Origin: Escherichia phage KEP3
Sequence record: PP047753
Reading direction: 5' to 3' (one strand)
Length of the DNA stretch: 64,000 nt
The notes beneath the pieces are model-generated. The model saw only the letters and a program-made list of their open reading frames with translations, was not told the DNA's origin and made no database searches. Position 1 is the stretch's first letter. Every line of letters begins with the position of its first letter. The position numbers and the translations under genes are program-made. Shown here one piece after another: positions 36,508 through 55,480 of this stretch.

Positions 36508-37614
36508 TTATTCGTCTTTAGCGTCAGAACGAACGTCTACCAGCAACTGAGGACGAGTACAGTATGGCAGCATGTAAGAGTGAGCTTCGAAGTCAATACC
36601 TTCATCACGGTCTTTTTCGTATTCGAATACGTACAGTTCCTGACCAAGTGTATTTGCGTAACCCATCTTAGGGCATGGGCCATAAGCCACTTCGAAGATG
36701 TTGTTTGCTTCACCCAGCATAGAAACGTTAGGGAAAGCGTGTCCTACACCAACCTCTGCACCAGCACCATCAATGCTCACCAGAGTATGAACCTTACCAC
36801 GCTTGTCTTTGAACTTACCGTTGTACTGGACAAACTTAACACCACCGTAGTAGAAAGTGTTCATGTGAGCCTGAACGCCGTCAGTACCACCAGTTCTCAG
36901 AGAACCAGTAATCTGTTGCCAAGCCAGTGGGGTCTGCTGTGCAAGATAGGCATCACGAATCTTAGGGTGTTTAGTCAGCTTGCTGAAGAATACACGGTCA
37001 ACAACTACGTGAATTTCTTCACCGTTGATTACAGTGCCAGTCTTAGCTTCGTCTTCCATGTGCATACGCAGTTCTTCAATAGAAGCGTCGATGTCAGCAT
37101 TAGGGTTGTCAAGGTCGAAGTAAACAGTCTTCTTCTCAACGTCGAACTGCTTGTACAGGTCAGCATACAGAGTACCACGAGCATCAACAACTTTACCCTT
37201 CAGAGCTTGCATAAACAGGAACTCACGAGTAATATCGAACTTGGTACGAATCTTCATCAGCTTCTTAGCACGTACTACAGCTTCAGTAGTCAGTTCGTTT
37301 GCAGTGCCTGGCTGACGTACACCCTGAATTTCATCAGGAGTAATGCTTTCAACTTCTTTGAAGTACATCATTGGGAAGCTGATTTGACGAACACGCTCAG
37401 GTGCGCTAGTCTCTGCTTTACGGCTATCACGGTCTACCGCATCAAGCAAGCTAACATCCCAATCAGTCAAATCCATAAGGAAAGTAGTTTGGGTGATTGG
37501 TGCTGAACGGAACAGACCTAAGTTGGAAATATACCCATAAGTATTTGGGATAGACTGGACTTCACCAGTCAGGTCAGCAAGGAAAAATCTGCTTTTTTCA
37601 GAATTAGTCAACAT
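36508..37614 (-). CDS. major capsid protein (lambda gpE-like)
   Basis: 368 aa downstream of protease and decoration genes; C-terminal region resembles lambda E family. Confidence 0.7.
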   Translation of the reverse strand: MLTNSEKSRFFLADLTGEVQSIPNTYGYISNLGLFRSAPITQTTFLMDLTDWDVSLLDAVDRDSRKAETSAPERVRQISFPMMYFKEVESITPDEIQGVRQPGTANELTTEAVVRAKKLMKIRTKFDITREFLFMQALKGKVVDARGTLYADLYKQFDVEKKTVYFDLDNPNADIDASIEELRMHMEDEAKTGTVINGEEIHVVVDRVFFSKLTKHPKIRDAYLAQQTPLAWQQITGSLRTGGTDGVQAHMNTFYYGGVKFVQYNGKFKDKRGKVHTLVSIDGAGAEVGVGHAFPNVSMLGEANNIFEVAYGPCPKMGYANTLGQELYVFEYEKDRDEGIDFEAHSYMLPYCTRPQLLVDVRSDAKDE

Positions 37615-43745: not shown

Positions 43746-43821
43746 TAAAATAACTTGGAGAATCCGAAGGGACTCGAACCCTTATAAACCTGTTTTGCAG
43801 ACAGGTACATAGCCATTTCTG
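43746..43821 (-). tRNA. tRNA-Cys: tRNA-Cys (GCA)
   Basis: T-arm GGGTTCGAGTCCC, 7-bp acceptor, anticodon loop CTGCAAA, CCA encoded. Confidence 0.75.
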
Positions 43822-43825
43822 TCAC

Positions 43826-43918
43826 GGATTCAAATTGGAGGAAGATACCAGACTTGAACTGGTACACCGATTTCTCAGCTACTGGCAGTTTAGCAAACTG
43901 CTCCCTTACCTTTTAGGG
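43826..43918 (-). tRNA. tRNA-Ser: tRNA-Ser (GCT), class II
   Basis: T-loop TTCAAGT, anticodon loop TTGCTAA, long variable arm. Confidence 0.65.
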
Positions 43919-43929
43919 TTAATCTTCCG

Positions 43930-44664
43930 TTATTTCTGTAATGCGTTCTTCATTTCTGGTGTTGCAATAGTATCAATTACACCAGTTTTACAAGCATCAT
44001 CAAACCAGTCTGGTAAGATACCTGCTAAGAACCCATTGATATTCGTTTTAAGGTACTCTGCAATAAGAGCAGCTTCTTCTTCAATCATCTGCACAACTTC
44101 ATCTGCATAAGCTGTAATCTTCGAGATACCTTCATTAATCTTGCTAACAGCTTGGTTAGCTAAATCAGAAACAGTATCAAGACCTTTGTCAATAGCATCT
44201 TGTAAGTCACTTAATACATCATTAACACCATCTAATGTACTGTTAATTGTGTCAATAGCTTTTTGACCGTACTCTGTAGCAACACCCATAATACCACTAA
44301 ATGGTGTACAACCGACTTGCTCTCCTGCTGCACCCATAACATTGGAATATCCTTTTGCTACCTGCATACGTGATGAAAACTCATCAATTGATTTTTGACC
44401 GTAATCTGTCAGTGTCTTAGTAGTTGATGTAGTGCTTGTCAGACTCGTTGTAAAGCTATTAAGCAGAACTGTTGTAAGTCCAGCAGCAATAAGCTTATCC
44501 TTTATTGTAGGGTCGGTTACAGAGCTAATAGAGTTTACAAGTGATGTAGAGGCAGCTACGGTTCCACCGAGAACTGCTGCACCAGTAATAAGGGGATTAG
44601 AAAACCCTCTACCGGTTTTTAAGAGATTAAAAATCTCCTTACCTTGTTCTGTCATCTCTTTCAT
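43930..44664 (-). CDS. hypothetical Ser/Thr-rich protein
   Basis: ORF track; start trimmed to ATG 44664 (AAGGTG RBS) to avoid overlap with tRNA. Confidence 0.45.
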   Translation of the reverse strand: MKEMTEQGKEIFNLLKTGRGFSNPLITGAAVLGGTVAASTSLVNSISSVTDPTIKDKLIAAGLTTVLLNSFTTSLTSTTSTTKTLTDYGQKSIDEFSSRMQVAKGYSNVMGAAGEQVGCTPFSGIMGVATEYGQKAIDTINSTLDGVNDVLSDLQDAIDKGLDTVSDLANQAVSKINEGISKITAYADEVVQMIEEEAALIAEYLKTNINGFLAGILPDWFDDACKTGVIDTIATPEMKNALQK

Positions 44665-44680
44665 TAAGCACCTTTGAAAT

Positions 44681-44758
44681 TGGTAGTCCAGTGGGATTTG
44701 AACCCTCTTCTCATGTTTTTCAGACACGCGCTTTAACCATATAAGCTACTTGGACTAT
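44681..44758 (-). tRNA. tRNA-Phe: tRNA-Phe (GAA)
   Basis: T-loop TTCAAAT, acceptor TAGTCCA/TGGACTA, anticodon loop CTGAAAA. Confidence 0.6.
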
Positions 44759-44762
44759 AAAT

Positions 44763-44838
44763 TGGGGTGACCTACGGGATTTGAACCCGTATAGACCATG
44801 TTCACAGCATGGGTCATTACCATTTATGATAAGGCCAC
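44763..44838 (-). tRNA. tRNA-His: tRNA-His (GTG)
   Basis: T-loop TTCAAAT, anticodon loop CTGTGAA. Confidence 0.7.
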
Positions 44839-44869
44839 ATTTAAGGACTCTCGTAAGAATCCTTAGAAG

Positions 44870-44946
44870 TGGCAGCGGCATAAGGATTTGAACCTTAATA
44901 AGACAGCTTCAGAGACTGCTGCATTGCCAGTTATGCTATACCTCTA
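44870..44946 (-). tRNA. tRNA-Gln: tRNA-Gln (CTG)
   Basis: D-stem GCAT/ATGC, anticodon loop CTCTGAA; one acceptor mismatch. Confidence 0.55.
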
Positions 44947-44950
44947 AATT

Positions 44951-45029
44951 TGGTACTCCATATCGGATTCGAACCGATACATAACACAGATTTTAAGTCT
45001 GGCCTCTCTGCCAATTGGAGTAATGGAGC
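44951..45029 (-). tRNA. tRNA with anticodon TAA (Leu codon UUA), class-I-like length
   Basis: T-arm ATCGG-TTCGAAT-CCGAT, anticodon loop CTTAAAA, discriminator A; short variable region. Confidence 0.55.
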
Positions 45030-45031
45030 AT

Positions 45032-45107
45032 TGGCGGGGGATGTTGGAATTGAACCAACTTCTTCGATTTCAAAGACCGAGGTTTTAACCTTGTAAACTA
45101 ATCCCCT
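45032..45107 (-). tRNA. tRNA-Gln: tRNA-Gln (TTG)
   Basis: T-loop TTCAATT, anticodon loop CTTTGAA. Confidence 0.65.
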
Positions 45108-45115
45108 TTAAATCT

Positions 45116-51969: not shown

Positions 51970-52184
51970 AAATCGCAGATATTATAGATTTATATCAAAC
52001 TGCAAAGAGTCATGGCTATATAACCTCAATTGGAAAGAATAGTCACTATGATGCTTTGACTGGAATGTATTTCAGGGCAATGGCTCAATCTAGTGAACAA
52101 CACTTAATGGTTTCTTCCAGTGAGTTTACTTCGTTTCTCTATTGCAGCAAAATTATAAATCGCAGGAGAACTGAAAAATGTTAA
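51951..52184 (+). CDS. hypothetical protein
   Basis: ORF track; AGAGGA RBS. Confidence 0.4.
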   Translation: MCSSQLEIADIIDLYQTAKSHGYITSIGKNSHYDALTGMYFRAMAQSSEQHLMVSSSEFTSFLYCSKIINRRRTEKC

Positions 52185-52768
52185 CAGTAAGTTTTAATTA
52201 CAATAGTGATGGCTCTGTATCAATTAATTCACCATATGCAAACGACCTATTGAAAGAGTTAGTTAATCAGTGTGACAGAGGTCTTCACTATGTTCCAAAT
52301 TCTTTTAAGCAGAAGACTATCGCCAATAACCTGATGCGTGTGACGGTTACAACATCAAATCCGAATTATGACATTGATAGTGAAAGCCCTTACTCTTTAG
52401 TGGCTCTTGGTGAATGCAGTCAATTCAAACTTGTATGCCACGACGCAGAAACATTTCTTAAGGTATTTTCCAGCCTCATTCACAATAATAAGTATGGGTA
52501 TGTTGATGGGAGTGTTAACTTCTATCCGGCAAACTATACCTGTCTATTGATTGATAATATGAGAAGCAGCAAACAAGAACCTACAGAAATTTCATTTGAT
52601 GTGAACTCTAGTCCAGACGCAGAAACAAGTAATAACTTCGATATGAGTTACGCACTATCACTTAGTAAGAAATCCGAGTTCATTGATTATGTCAATGGAT
52701 TTGGTTTTAAGTTTGATGAGAGCATGAATCTCAAAAAGCTTAAGAACCTACTTAAGACCAAAGCTTAA
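52178..52768 (+). CDS. hypothetical protein
   Basis: ORF track; AGGAGA RBS. Confidence 0.5.
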   Translation: MLTVSFNYNSDGSVSINSPYANDLLKELVNQCDRGLHYVPNSFKQKTIANNLMRVTVTTSNPNYDIDSESPYSLVALGECSQFKLVCHDAETFLKVFSSLIHNNKYGYVDGSVNFYPANYTCLLIDNMRSSKQEPTEISFDVNSSPDAETSNNFDMSYALSLSKKSEFIDYVNGFGFKFDESMNLKKLKNLLKTKA

Positions 52769-52775
52769 GTGTAAA

Positions 52776-52800
52776 CAGGGGCTAACGCCCCTTTATCTAT
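52776..52800 (+). terminator. rho-independent terminator (AGGGGC-TAAC-GCCCCT + T-rich)
   Basis: Seen directly. Confidence 0.5.
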
Positions 52801-52815
52801 TTATAAGGATATTTA

Positions 52816-53187
52816 ATGAAGGCTAAGAGTGCAAAAGACTTTTATTGCTTCCTACAATCCTATATCCACTCCGTGGAGAATGGTGAAAAATACAATCTTA
52901 ACGATGTTATTTCATCACCTTTAACATGGAGAATGAGTAGATGGCCTGAAGAGGATATTACACCAACTGCCGAGCAACCTACCTATAACCCAGACATTAA
53001 ACTCCCAGATTCAGATAAGTTACTATACCCAATGTTCCACATTGTTGGGCTTGGTACGTTTCTTATGGATATCCAGTATGTAATTGGTAAGGGTTATAAA
53101 GTTGAAGGTATTGTTGTTGGTGATGTGTCTCCACAACATAAAGGCTATTTCAGATTAAACGCACGTTTAGAGGCTAAAAAGAAATGA
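52816..53187 (+). CDS. hypothetical protein, paralog of N-terminal domain of 53184-54566
   Basis: Alignable to first ~120 aa of the next gene. Confidence 0.5.
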   Translation: MKAKSAKDFYCFLQSYIHSVENGEKYNLNDVISSPLTWRMSRWPEEDITPTAEQPTYNPDIKLPDSDKLLYPMFHIVGLGTFLMDIQYVIGKGYKVEGIVVGDVSPQHKGYFRLNARLEAKKK

Positions 53188-54566
53188 TTAAAGCAAAGAC
53201 TTATCCAGACTTCAAAGAATTTGTAAAGGGCTTCATTGCAAATGTAAAGGCTGGTAAGAGATATGATTTTAGAACATATCAAGAGGCTATTTTACCACTT
53301 ACCTATAGTTCATATTGGCCTGAAGCTGATATCGCAGAGGTTGAGAAGTTTGACTACAAACCAGACTACAAAGTTCCTTTCAGTGATGATTTGCTTTACA
53401 GTATCGGTGCTCAGATGAGAACTTCTGACTTCTTCATGGATTTACAATACGCAATTATCAATGGTAAAGACGTTGATACAGTTTATTGTGAATGGTTGGC
53501 AAGAGTTAAACCGTTCTCAATGTTGAATGCTAAGTTGAAGGATGCTATTAAGCCGCCAGCAATCACTCAGCAACCGACAAACCAAACAGTTAATGAGGGT
53601 GGCACACTTACCCTAAGCGTTATCGCAACTAACGCCACTGGATATCAATGGAAGAAGGGTGGTGAGGACATCTCCAGTGCCACTTCTGCAACTTATACAA
53701 AACAATCTGTAGTGCCTTCTGACGCTGGTTCATACACTTGTGTTGTATCTGGAGAGGCAGGGACAAGTGTTACATCAGATGCGGCAACAGTTACTGTTAA
53801 TGCGCTACCCGTGATTACACAGCAACCTTCTAGTCAGACCATCAATGAGGGTGGAAATATCAACTTGGAGGTTACTGCAACGGGTGCAACAGGTTACCAA
53901 TGGAAGAAAGATGGCTCTGACATCCCTTCAGCTACAGAAGCCACCTATAGCAAGTCTGGCGCACTGCCAACAGATGCAGGCTCATACACTTGCGTTGTAA
54001 CGGGTGCAGGTGGTTCTGTTACTTCTAGCCCTGCGACTGTTGTAGTAAACGCTCTACCAGTGATTACCAAGCAGCCAACCAACCAAGCAGTCAATGAAGG
54101 TAGTAGTTTGACGCTGAGTGTTGAGGCTACAGGTGCAACAGGTTACCAATGGAAGAAAGACAATGTGAACATCCCTAGCGCAACTGGTGCAACTTACACG
54201 AAAGCTAAAGCAGTCCCTGCTGATGCTGGCTCATATACCTGTGTAGTAACTGGTGCGGGTGGTTCAGTCACATCTAGTGCAGCGACAGTTACTGTGAATG
54301 CTCTTCCTGTAATCACTCAACAGCCAACCAATCAAGAAATCACTGAAGGTGAGACCTTAACGCTGAATGTTGTGGCAACAGGTGCAACCGGATATCAGTG
54401 GAAGAAGGGTGAGGAAAACATCCCAGATGCAACTACTGCAACTTACACCAAAGAAGGTGCAACCGCTGCTGATGCAGGAAGCTACACTTGTGTAGTAACT
54501 GGCGCAGGTGGTTCGGTAACATCTAATGCGGCAACAGTTACAGTTAATCAAGCAGGAGGTGAATAA
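53184..54566 (+). CDS. Ig-like tandem-repeat protein
   Basis: Four ~80-aa repeats ALPVITQQP(T/S)NQ...GATGYQWKK...DAGSYTCVVTGAGGSVTS...ATVTVN after an N-terminal domain. Confidence 0.6.
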   Translation: MIKAKTYPDFKEFVKGFIANVKAGKRYDFRTYQEAILPLTYSSYWPEADIAEVEKFDYKPDYKVPFSDDLLYSIGAQMRTSDFFMDLQYAIINGKDVDTVYCEWLARVKPFSMLNAKLKDAIKPPAITQQPTNQTVNEGGTLTLSVIATNATGYQWKKGGEDISSATSATYTKQSVVPSDAGSYTCVVSGEAGTSVTSDAATVTVNALPVITQQPSSQTINEGGNINLEVTATGATGYQWKKDGSDIPSATEATYSKSGALPTDAGSYTCVVTGAGGSVTSSPATVVVNALPVITKQPTNQAVNEGSSLTLSVEATGATGYQWKKDNVNIPSATGATYTKAKAVPADAGSYTCVVTGAGGSVTSSAATVTVNALPVITQQPTNQEITEGETLTLNVVATGATGYQWKKGEENIPDATTATYTKEGATAADAGSYTCVVTGAGGSVTSNAATVTVNQAGGE

Positions 54567-55030
54567 TGCAACTCTCAAGAAAAGGTTTAGAAGCCATTAA
54601 GTTCTTTGAAGGTCTGAAGTTAGAGGCTTACGAAGACTCTGCTGGAATCCCTACAATTGGGTATGGGACAACCAGTATTTCTGGTAAACCTGTTAAGATG
54701 GGTATGAAAATCACGGCTGAACAAGCTGAACAGTATCTTCTCGCAGATGTTGAAAAGTTTGTTGCAGCAGTGAACAAAGCTATCAAGGTTCCAACTTCTC
54801 AGAATGAGTTCGATGCACTTGTAAGTGAAACATACAACATCGGTATCACAGCTATGCAGGATTCTACATTTATCAAGCGCCACAATGCTGGTAATAAGGT
54901 AGGTTGTGCAGAAGCTATGCAGTGGTGGAACAAGATTACAGTCAAAGGTAAGAAGGTCACTTCAAACGGCTTGAAGAACAGACGTAGAATGGAAGCTGAC
55001 ATTTATCTTGACAGTGTATATCCAAAGTAA
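54566..55030 (+). CDS. endolysin, T4/lambda-type lysozyme (GH24)
   Basis: LEAYEDSAGIPTIGYGTT catalytic region. Confidence 0.85.
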   Translation: MQLSRKGLEAIKFFEGLKLEAYEDSAGIPTIGYGTTSISGKPVKMGMKITAEQAEQYLLADVEKFVAAVNKAIKVPTSQNEFDALVSETYNIGITAMQDSTFIKRHNAGNKVGCAEAMQWWNKITVKGKKVTSNGLKNRRRMEADIYLDSVYPK

Positions 55031-55036
55031 TATCTT

Positions 55037-55066
55037 CATAGGCTCCTTCGGGAGCCTTTTTTTTTT
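55037..55066 (+). terminator. strong rho-independent terminator (GGCTCC-TTCG-GGAGCC + T11)
   Basis: Seen directly. Confidence 0.8.
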
Positions 55067-55081
55067 TCTAAGGAGAAAACT

Positions 55082-55480
55082 ATGAAGCTTTGGGCTAGTG
55101 ATTTTGGGACTTTTAAATACACTCGTAATGGTTCGCTTGTACGCATCATTGGAAACAATGTAGTTTCAAGAGGCGACAAGGTGTATACACGGTTTACTGT
55201 AGAGCTTGTTGAACTGTCACCTATTGAGTCTGTGAACAATGGTATGTTCAAGTTTGAGACTTACAATGTCAATGAGCATGGACAATTCAATCCTCTTGGT
55301 GAAAGTGGACTTGATATTATTTCAGAGCACCCATTGACAAAAGAGCAACTTGCAGGTTACTATAAAACTGTTCTTGAAAGGCAGTTAGCAACACATGAAC
55401 AAGAAGCTAACTACCATTTACAGCATTGCGAAACTTTAAGAGCAAAAATCGAACAAGCAGAGAGAGGTTTTTATGAATAA
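55082..55480 (+). CDS. hypothetical protein
   Basis: ORF track; AAGGAGA RBS. Confidence 0.5.
   Translation: MKLWASDFGTFKYTRNGSLVRIIGNNVVSRGDKVYTRFTVELVELSPIESVNNGMFKFETYNVNEHGQFNPLGESGLDIISEHPLTKEQLAGYYKTVLERQLATHEQEANYHLQHCETLRAKIEQAERGFYE

Follow-up and report, generated by a model that had tools for sequence, protein, structure and literature searches.

The gene at positions 53184–54566 (+ strand) of the Escherichia phage KEP3 sequence (record PP047753) encodes a protein of 460 amino acids (aa) which, considering the locus as a whole, is best explained as Hex-Dec, a Felix O1-type myophage protein that decorates capsid hexamers in a Hoc-like manner, a reading that is very probably correct. 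The stretch analysed, referred to here as the window, comprises 64,000 nt and belongs to a Felixounavirus, i.e. a Felix O1-like myophage. Hex-Dec is already known from two 2025 cryo-electron microscopy (cryo-EM) studies of close relatives. Immediately upstream, at 52816–53187 (+), a 123 aa gene constitutes a stand-alone paralog of the Hex-Dec capsid-binding domain (CapBD) and falls into PHROG 4463. This paralog is the only part of the locus not found discussed in the searchable literature, and represents a modest new lead. Both open reading frames (ORFs) lie where a preliminary description of this DNA had placed them, and the endolysin gene adjoins them at 54566–55030.

A sequence search of the PDB matched the 460 aa protein over residues 1–460 to chain S of 9ncf, the ‘Immunoglobulin-like domain protein’ of the capsid of Escherichia phage JohannRWettstein (Bas63), at ~95 % identity (E 1e-280), with differences located mainly in the third immunoglobulin (Ig)-like unit. 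The protein also aligned from residue 1 with chain S of 9c2d/9c3a, gp20 of the Sf14 capsid (E 7e-167). The CapBD, including Arg79 and Arg107, occupies aa 1–123 (53184–53552, +); NCBIfam holds no model for this domain or for that of the paralog. Four Ig-like units of 83–84 aa follow on the same strand: unit 1 (aa 125–208, 53556–53807), unit 2 (aa 209–291, 53808–54056), unit 3 (aa 292–374, 54057–54305) and the C-terminal unit 4 (aa 375–457, 54306–54554). Pfam assigned Ig_3 (E 3e-43; 146.6 bits, cut-off 30), Ig_2 (E 2e-36) and I-set (E 3e-33; 114.2 bits, cut-off 23.7) to the protein, in four stretches apiece, every score being well above the curated cut-off. The preliminary description had read the protein as an N-terminal domain followed by four Ig-like repeats, which agrees with these assignments. 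It had also proposed a search with hidden Markov models, Big_2 and I-set among them; the domains are I-set/Ig_3, while Big_2 (PF02368) gave no Pfam match on the protein, the only hit of that kind being Big_7, whose 18.5 bits fall short of the cut-off of 24.1.

The location of the protein in the virion is known from its orthologs. In Bas63, where the name Hex-Dec was given, it is an ordered monomer in hexamer centres and is confined to the facet-edge hexamers of a T=9 capsid; the authors noted that its gene lies >10 kb outside the structural module (PMC12609058). Likewise, Sf14 gp20 was detected by mass spectrometry and is a Hoc-like monomer centred in the pentamer-proximal hexamers of a T=9 capsid (PMC11821841). 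Within the N-terminal 118 residues of gp20, Arg79 and Arg107 are salt-bridged to Asp221 of three of the six capsid protein subunits, and the true 3-fold hexamers are unoccupied because their aspartates are displaced (PMC11821841). Both arginines are invariant in 24 distinct CapBD sequences, that of the window included. The binding partner, the major capsid protein, is encoded at 36508–37614 (−) and matches 9ncf_A (E 1e-245) and 9c2d_A (E 5e-233); Asp221 is conserved within HPKIRDAYL, and no indel precedes residue 221. Because Arg79, Arg107 and Asp221 are all present and the orthologs have been placed by cryo-EM, placement and binding mode can be inferred for this phage with high confidence from ~95 % identity and conserved contact residues. 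A single copy of the N-terminal 123 aa CapBD would thus plug into the central depression of each pentamer-proximal hexamer of a T=9 head (60 in all), where salt bridges from Arg79 and Arg107 to capsid protein Asp221 would hold it. The four I-set Ig-like domains would then point outward as a flexible string.

Most GenBank records, and PHROG 3995 to which the 460 aa protein belongs, carry the label ‘tail protein’. In Felix O1, gp36 was identified in virions by mass spectrometry with 44 % coverage and was thereafter termed the ‘major tail protein’ (PMC3185647), and the Ig region resembles the Ig domains that certain siphophage tail-tube proteins carry as appendages (PHROG 158 and 853). That the protein belongs to the tail, or is even the major tail protein, can nevertheless hardly be correct, as two independent cryo-EM structures put the ortholog on capsid hexamers and the Bas63 authors explicitly call the tail label wrong (PMC12609058). 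The Felix O1 mass spectrometry attests presence in the virion only, not location, and the tail PHROG matches are restricted to the Ig region, with no tube, sheath or fibre homology outside of it. Of the surface-exposed capsid or tail decoration proposed in the preliminary description, the capsid part is therefore retained and the tail part dropped. The early Felix O1 naming may be the origin of the widespread label, and the ‘Tail protein’ name on some UniRef members of the 123 aa paralog family looks to have been taken over from the label of the neighbouring gene. This gene and hundreds of orthologs are currently databased as ‘tail protein’; the proper label is ‘Hoc-like hexamer decoration protein’.

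The Ig units share 62–73 % nucleotide identity and 69–76 % aa identity in pairwise comparison. The longest exact run common to two units is 29 nt (units 2 and 3), all others being 11–16 nt, and Tandem Repeats Finder reported a period of 249 with a score of 635 and 76 % matches, yet only 2.3 copies. Units 2–4 have the motif DAGSYTCVVTGAGGSVTS in common, written with different codons in each. The repeats are consequently not near-identical at the nucleotide level, as had been supposed, and slippage between identical repeats was rejected as a source of variation, the nucleotide identity being too low. Variation in repeat number itself is evident among related phages, as the preliminary description had foreseen on the strength of the supposed near-identity. 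Across 28 IMG/VR loci and Bas63, Hex-Dec proteins of 210, 294, 377 or 460–461 aa contain one, two, three or four Ig units, respectively. This census rests on the IMG/VR loci; a protein search with the CapBD returned almost only one-Ig forms and is unsuited to the purpose. Variation in Ig domain number among relatives has already been published (PMC12609058, PMC11821841).

Four-domain forms are not unique to Bas63, since 11 of the best 30 nucleotide matches to the locus span ~3004 nt in one piece, corresponding to four units; the remaining 19, each broken into two pieces, extend over ~2751 nt, corresponding to three. For the loci at which Ig units could be split (the regular expression used failed at several), two-unit proteins correspond to units 1 and 4, and three-unit proteins to units 1, 2 and 4 or, in one locus, to units 1 and 2 with a unit resembling 3. 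Unit 4 is retained in relatives with two, three and four domains. Whole internal units appear to have been gained or lost, because two-unit forms correspond to 1+4 and three-unit forms mostly to 1+2+4. Across 52816–55030 the window and Bas63 are 98–100 % identical outside of a mosaic patch at 53956–54315, which takes in the whole of unit 3 together with the end of unit 2 and within which nucleotide identity falls to 58–72 %. The version of the patch found in the window also occurs in two of the loci (L005 and L016) at 90–91 % aa identity. To judge from these identities, the patch is a swapped single Ig cassette. The variation looks like old gain, loss or swap of whole-unit cassettes between diverged units as opposed to ongoing slippage, and whole 83 aa units would have been gained, lost and exchanged as the group evolved.

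In both structure papers the protein is suggested to act like Hoc, by sensing the environment, controlling aggregation or adhering to surfaces of bacteria or mucosa (PMC12609058, PMC11821841). By analogy with T4 Hoc, the Ig string may help the particle to adhere weakly to surfaces of the host or the environment without being essential, or may modulate particle aggregation. Carbohydrate binding, named in the preliminary description for such proteins, is a putative property in this family. The string could instead be a true secondary receptor-binding device that sets host range, which is considered unlikely. In a PhageMaP screen of four strains, Bas63 g124 received a higher essentiality score on E. 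coli S17-1 than on the other three; however, the gene was listed only because its score diverged on one strain, and its involvement in adherence to S17-1 is the speculation of those authors. Within Hex-Dec, variability is highest in the Ig units and unit 3 has been swapped between near-identical phages, as a receptor-binding device might be, but the ratio of nonsynonymous to synonymous substitution rates (dN/dS) of Ig unit 1 is 0.13 (CapBD 0.05, endolysin 0.08), which is purifying and not diversifying. Additionally, the Sf14 authors found no difference in host range between two- and three-domain phages (PMC11821841). A role as a weak accessory adhesin is thus preferred. Felix O1-type phages serve in the typing of Salmonella and E. 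coli, in biocontrol and in therapy. Being dispensable and facing outward at 60 capsid sites, the Ig string would be an obvious platform for display and engineering, and may influence persistence on mucosal surfaces.

The 123 aa protein aligns with residues 2–119 of the 460 aa protein at 36 % identity over 121 aa (E 6e-18) and with the solved capsid-binding domains at E 1e-12 (9ncf_S) and 3e-11. Because the alignment covers residues 2–119 at this significance, the 123 aa gene is judged a true paralog of the N-terminal domain of Hex-Dec only, in keeping with the relationship originally proposed for it. The motifs WPExDI, LLY, FxMDxQY and LNAxL are common to paralog and CapBD, and 35 columns are conserved in both families. 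The capsid contacts are not among the shared features: the position of Arg79 is Gly in all 25 distinct paralogs, and that of Arg107 is Gln, His or Asn. AlphaFold2 prediction of the paralog from an alignment of 19 near-identical members gave a predicted local distance difference test score (pLDDT) of 45.6 and was unusable. Prediction with paralog and CapBD sequences combined gave a pLDDT of 55 and a predicted template modelling score of 0.53, and this model was used for coarse fold matching only; in Foldseek the sole significant PDB matches of the low-confidence model were 9c2d_S and 9ncf_S, with a template modelling score of 0.61.

The paralog is widely and tightly conserved. Copies at ≥60 % identity are present in 232 of 252 phage records, leaving 20 (~8 %) without one. 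Among 5.8 billion proteins, 51 paralog clusters of 104–124 aa were found, mostly of 122–124 aa; 51 of the 123 columns are invariant, and dN/dS is 0.12 at a mean dS of ~0.8, in comparison with the values for the CapBD and endolysin given above. Members of its family (PHROG 4463), among them the orthologs ORF37 of Felix O1, bas63_0125 and ORF40c of VpaE1, are 122–124 aa long, 75–99 % identical and always located directly upstream of Hex-Dec. An AAGGA ribosome-binding site precedes the paralog, and its stop codon overlaps the Hex-Dec start codon as ATGA (53184–53187, +). The same overlap occurs in 25 of 28 other paralog-bearing loci, the remaining three having an 8 nt overlap or none, and suggests translational coupling of paralog and Hex-Dec. 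That the two genes in the window are joined by frameshifting or read-through was considered and rejected; they lie in different frames, with the clean ATGA overlap conserved in most loci.

Published data on Felix O1 give the timing of expression. By reverse transcription–polymerase chain reaction, ORF36 and ORF37 transcripts are maximal at 60 min, alongside tail-fibre and baseplate genes, while those of ORF35 and ORF38 peak at 25 min (PMC3185647). The list of 17 Felix O1 virion proteins does not include the paralog, though proteins of 9.7 and 11.7 kDa were detected (PMC3185647). VpaE1 ORF40c is annotated as ‘hypothetical’ and is not flagged as structural. No extra density on unoccupied hexamers was reported in the Bas63 or Sf14 maps, and neither the two structure papers nor the Sf14 supplement mentions the paralog gene (PMC12609058, PMC11821841). 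The paralog is a late gene under purifying selection that two recent whole-virion structures have left unaccounted for.

Natural disruptions of the paralog are also apparent. In Shigella phage Z31 (MN655999.1, L032 2306–2497) and Salmonella phage SP116 (L021 3809–4000) the gene is reduced to a 192 nt dead remnant in which the start codon is lost and ~220 nt are deleted; the Hex-Dec of Z31 is annotated as two fragments. In Salmonella phage SP3_SHan-2021 (MW296865.1, L031 2501–3379) paralog and Hex-Dec are fused in frame into a 292 aa protein and no separate paralog is present. Residues 1–48 of the fusion are of the paralog type; from the crossover at the shared WPE(E/A)DI motif onward the protein is Hex-Dec, with two Ig units. 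Loss of the paralog was also considered as a correlate of the one-Ig form of Hex-Dec; this was rejected, as four loci (L017, L020, L022 and L028) combine one Ig unit with an intact paralog.

These observations bear on whether the paralog is simply a functionless, slowly decaying leftover of tandem duplication. The remnants in Z31 and SP116, the fusion in SP3_SHan-2021 and the 20 records without the gene are what decay would produce. A dN/dS of 0.12 at dS ~0.8, a length fixed at 122–124 aa in nearly all clusters, 51 invariant columns, a ribosome-binding site with coupled stop and start codons, and the same synteny kept in a relative at 47 % identity together make a decaying leftover very improbable. 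The gene is more readily understood as an old tandem duplicate of the CapBD alone that has been kept by selection, would be made late and is probably translated in coupling with Hex-Dec.

What such a duplicate does can be addressed only tentatively. With low confidence, a role in head decoration or assembly is proposed in which the paralog is not a stable virion component: it may transiently occupy or compete for hexamer sites, or may partner the anchor domain of Hex-Dec. It could possibly be a neofunctionalized copy of the hexamer plug, with the fold kept and the arginines dropped, that acts as a regulator or transient component of head decoration. Such a protein might, for example, set which hexamers take Hex-Dec (60 of 80), close off procapsid hexamers ahead of expansion, or decorate 3-fold hexamers at an occupancy low enough to stay hidden. 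The paralog could be relevant to the restriction of Hex-Dec to a subset of hexamers.

A related but more doubtful alternative is that the paralog is a second, Ig-less capsid decoration on sites without Hex-Dec, such as the 20 true 3-fold hexamers, where low occupancy or disorder would have caused icosahedral averaging to miss it. The paralog belongs to the fold family of a proven hexamer-centre binder, is expressed late with morphogenesis genes, and has changed contact residues that could direct it instead to the 3-fold hexamers, which differ in shape and are avoided by Hex-Dec; Ig-less CapBD proteins (P0104) exist in distant relatives. However, no density has been reported on the other hexamers of Bas63 or Sf14, and the paralog is missing from the Felix O1 virion list despite the smaller proteins recovered there, nor does the VpaE1 annotation mark it as structural. 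A role in assembly or regulation is favoured over a hidden structural one, again with low confidence.

Several points weigh against the picture drawn here of anchor, Ig string and paralog. The evidence for placement comes from orthologs, this phage being known from sequence alone. The Ig string is not resolved in either cryo-EM map and has no known ligand, so that adhesion is argued by analogy only. AlphaFold2 modelled the paralog with low confidence (pLDDT 55). The absence of the paralog from the proteome is weak evidence, as the Felix O1 analysis applied a 25 % coverage cut-off and a low-copy 14 kDa protein could be missed. Finally, ~8 % of relatives are without the paralog and yet viable; therefore, any role of the paralog would be accessory. 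The natural knockouts (Z31 and SP116) and the fusion (SP3_SHan-2021) make that role cheaply testable.

A profile of the CapBD and paralog families searched against 1.84 billion representative proteins (representatives at 50 % identity) found only 12 members; therefore, the anchor domain is taken to be a narrow, lineage-specific invention. A metagenomic relative of 87 kb contains a 195 aa gene, the paralog (47 % identical), a 298 aa Hex-Dec (CapBD 59 % identical) and lysozyme. The presence of the full arrangement in so diverged a relative indicates that the duplication is old. Two distant relatives (L038 and L039) have a single CapBD gene beside lysozyme and no paralog. Distant CapBD homologs, namely P0100/P0101 (L035), P0102 (L036 and L037) and P0104 (L038 and L039), have Big_2, a single I-set or no Ig; P0100 has Big_2, and in P0104 the C-terminal Ig is absent and a Lys-rich tail is present. 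Across these proteins the anchor is the constant module and the displayed domain the exchangeable one.

Phage records matched by 52100–55100 in a nucleotide search numbered 248. Almost all are of Felix O1-like phages of Escherichia, Salmonella, Shigella and Citrobacter, and Bas63 was the top match (94.9 % nucleotide identity). Gene order is identical in Bas63, where bas63_0126 (196 aa), 0125 (123 aa), 0124 (‘immunoglobulin-like domain protein’, 460 aa) and 0123 (endolysin) follow one another, and is the same in Felix O1 (ORF38, ORF37, ORF36 as ‘tail protein’ of 294 aa, and the endolysin ORF35). The order is invariant across the 28 IMG/VR loci and Bas63 wherever a locus reaches far enough downstream, and Hex-Dec is located directly 5′ of the endolysin in all loci reaching that far, Felix O1 included. 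The endolysin gene (54566–55030, +; Phage_lysozyme, E 1.8e-41) shares one base of its start with the Hex-Dec stop codon; it is a conserved neighbour, outside of the decoration function. Holin–lysin cassettes are absent according to the Felix O1 genome paper (PMC3185647).

Paralog, Hex-Dec and endolysin are bracketed by terminator-like hairpins. The upstream edge of the unit is a GC hairpin at 52777–52792 (+), AGGGGCTAACGCCCCT followed by a T-rich tail, located between the 196 aa gene and the paralog; the same element is tabled as a terminator in Felix O1 (PMC3185647, Table 2). The unit is closed by a strong intrinsic-terminator-like hairpin followed by T10 at 55040–55057 (+). The ORF at 55082–55480, downstream of the endolysin, matched no Pfam family.

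The 196 aa gene at 52178–52768 belongs to PHROG 4034, of unassigned function, and matched no Pfam or NCBIfam family; its synteny with paralog and Hex-Dec is as tight as that of the endolysin. In the distant loci L038 and L039 a 185 aa gene takes its position. Further upstream are a cluster of 26 tRNA genes (43756–49525, −), a 471 aa DUF2828/DUF7788 protein (49691–51106, −), annotated as ‘RNA-binding protein’ in Felix O1, and a DUF5681 protein (51187–51558, −); this stretch is transcribed divergently from the Hex-Dec block. A Felix O1-type paralog/Hex-Dec locus at 84.6 % aa identity is also found in record GU169904.1, ‘Staphylococcus phage SA1’ (143190–143558), which is probably a mixed or contaminated assembly.

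Among known systems, the nearest is Hex-Dec of Bas63 (bas63_0124, 9ncf_S), which has the same length of 460 aa, the same CapBD and four Ig domains, ~95 % identity and the same neighbours, and whose capsid protein partner is ~98 % identical to that of the window. Sf14 gp20 has a homologous CapBD with Arg79 and Arg107 conserved, a pentamer-proximal monomer and I-set Ig domains; it differs in belonging to the genus Mooglevirus, in having three Ig domains and 372 aa, and in its more diverged sequence. The Ig units also match the T5 decoration protein pb10 (5lxk, E 2e-12), although pb10 (5lxk, 8zvi) contains only one Ig domain and binds the capsid through an unrelated domain. A very strong match to the Ig units at 53556–54554 came from the repeats of GhpA, the grappling-hook protein of Aureispira (9flp; E 1.6e-92); it far exceeds any match to a eukaryotic Ig protein and hints that phages and bacteria have traded Ig cassettes. 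T4 Hoc is similar in placing one monomer at each hexamer centre, in its outward string of I-set Ig-like domains and in being dispensable in the laboratory. In Hoc, however, the CapBD is C-terminal, whereas that of Hex-Dec is N-terminal, so that the domain order is reversed. The two capsid-binding domains have no detectable homology and are of distinct topology according to the Bas63 paper (PMC12609058); Hoc-like PHROG matches are confined to residues 121–457, the Ig region, and no Hoc chain matched residues 1–123 in the PDB sequence search. Given the reversed order, the Ig-only PHROG matches and the topologically distinct CapBD, Hex-Dec is a functional analogue of T4 Hoc and not a member of the Hoc family.

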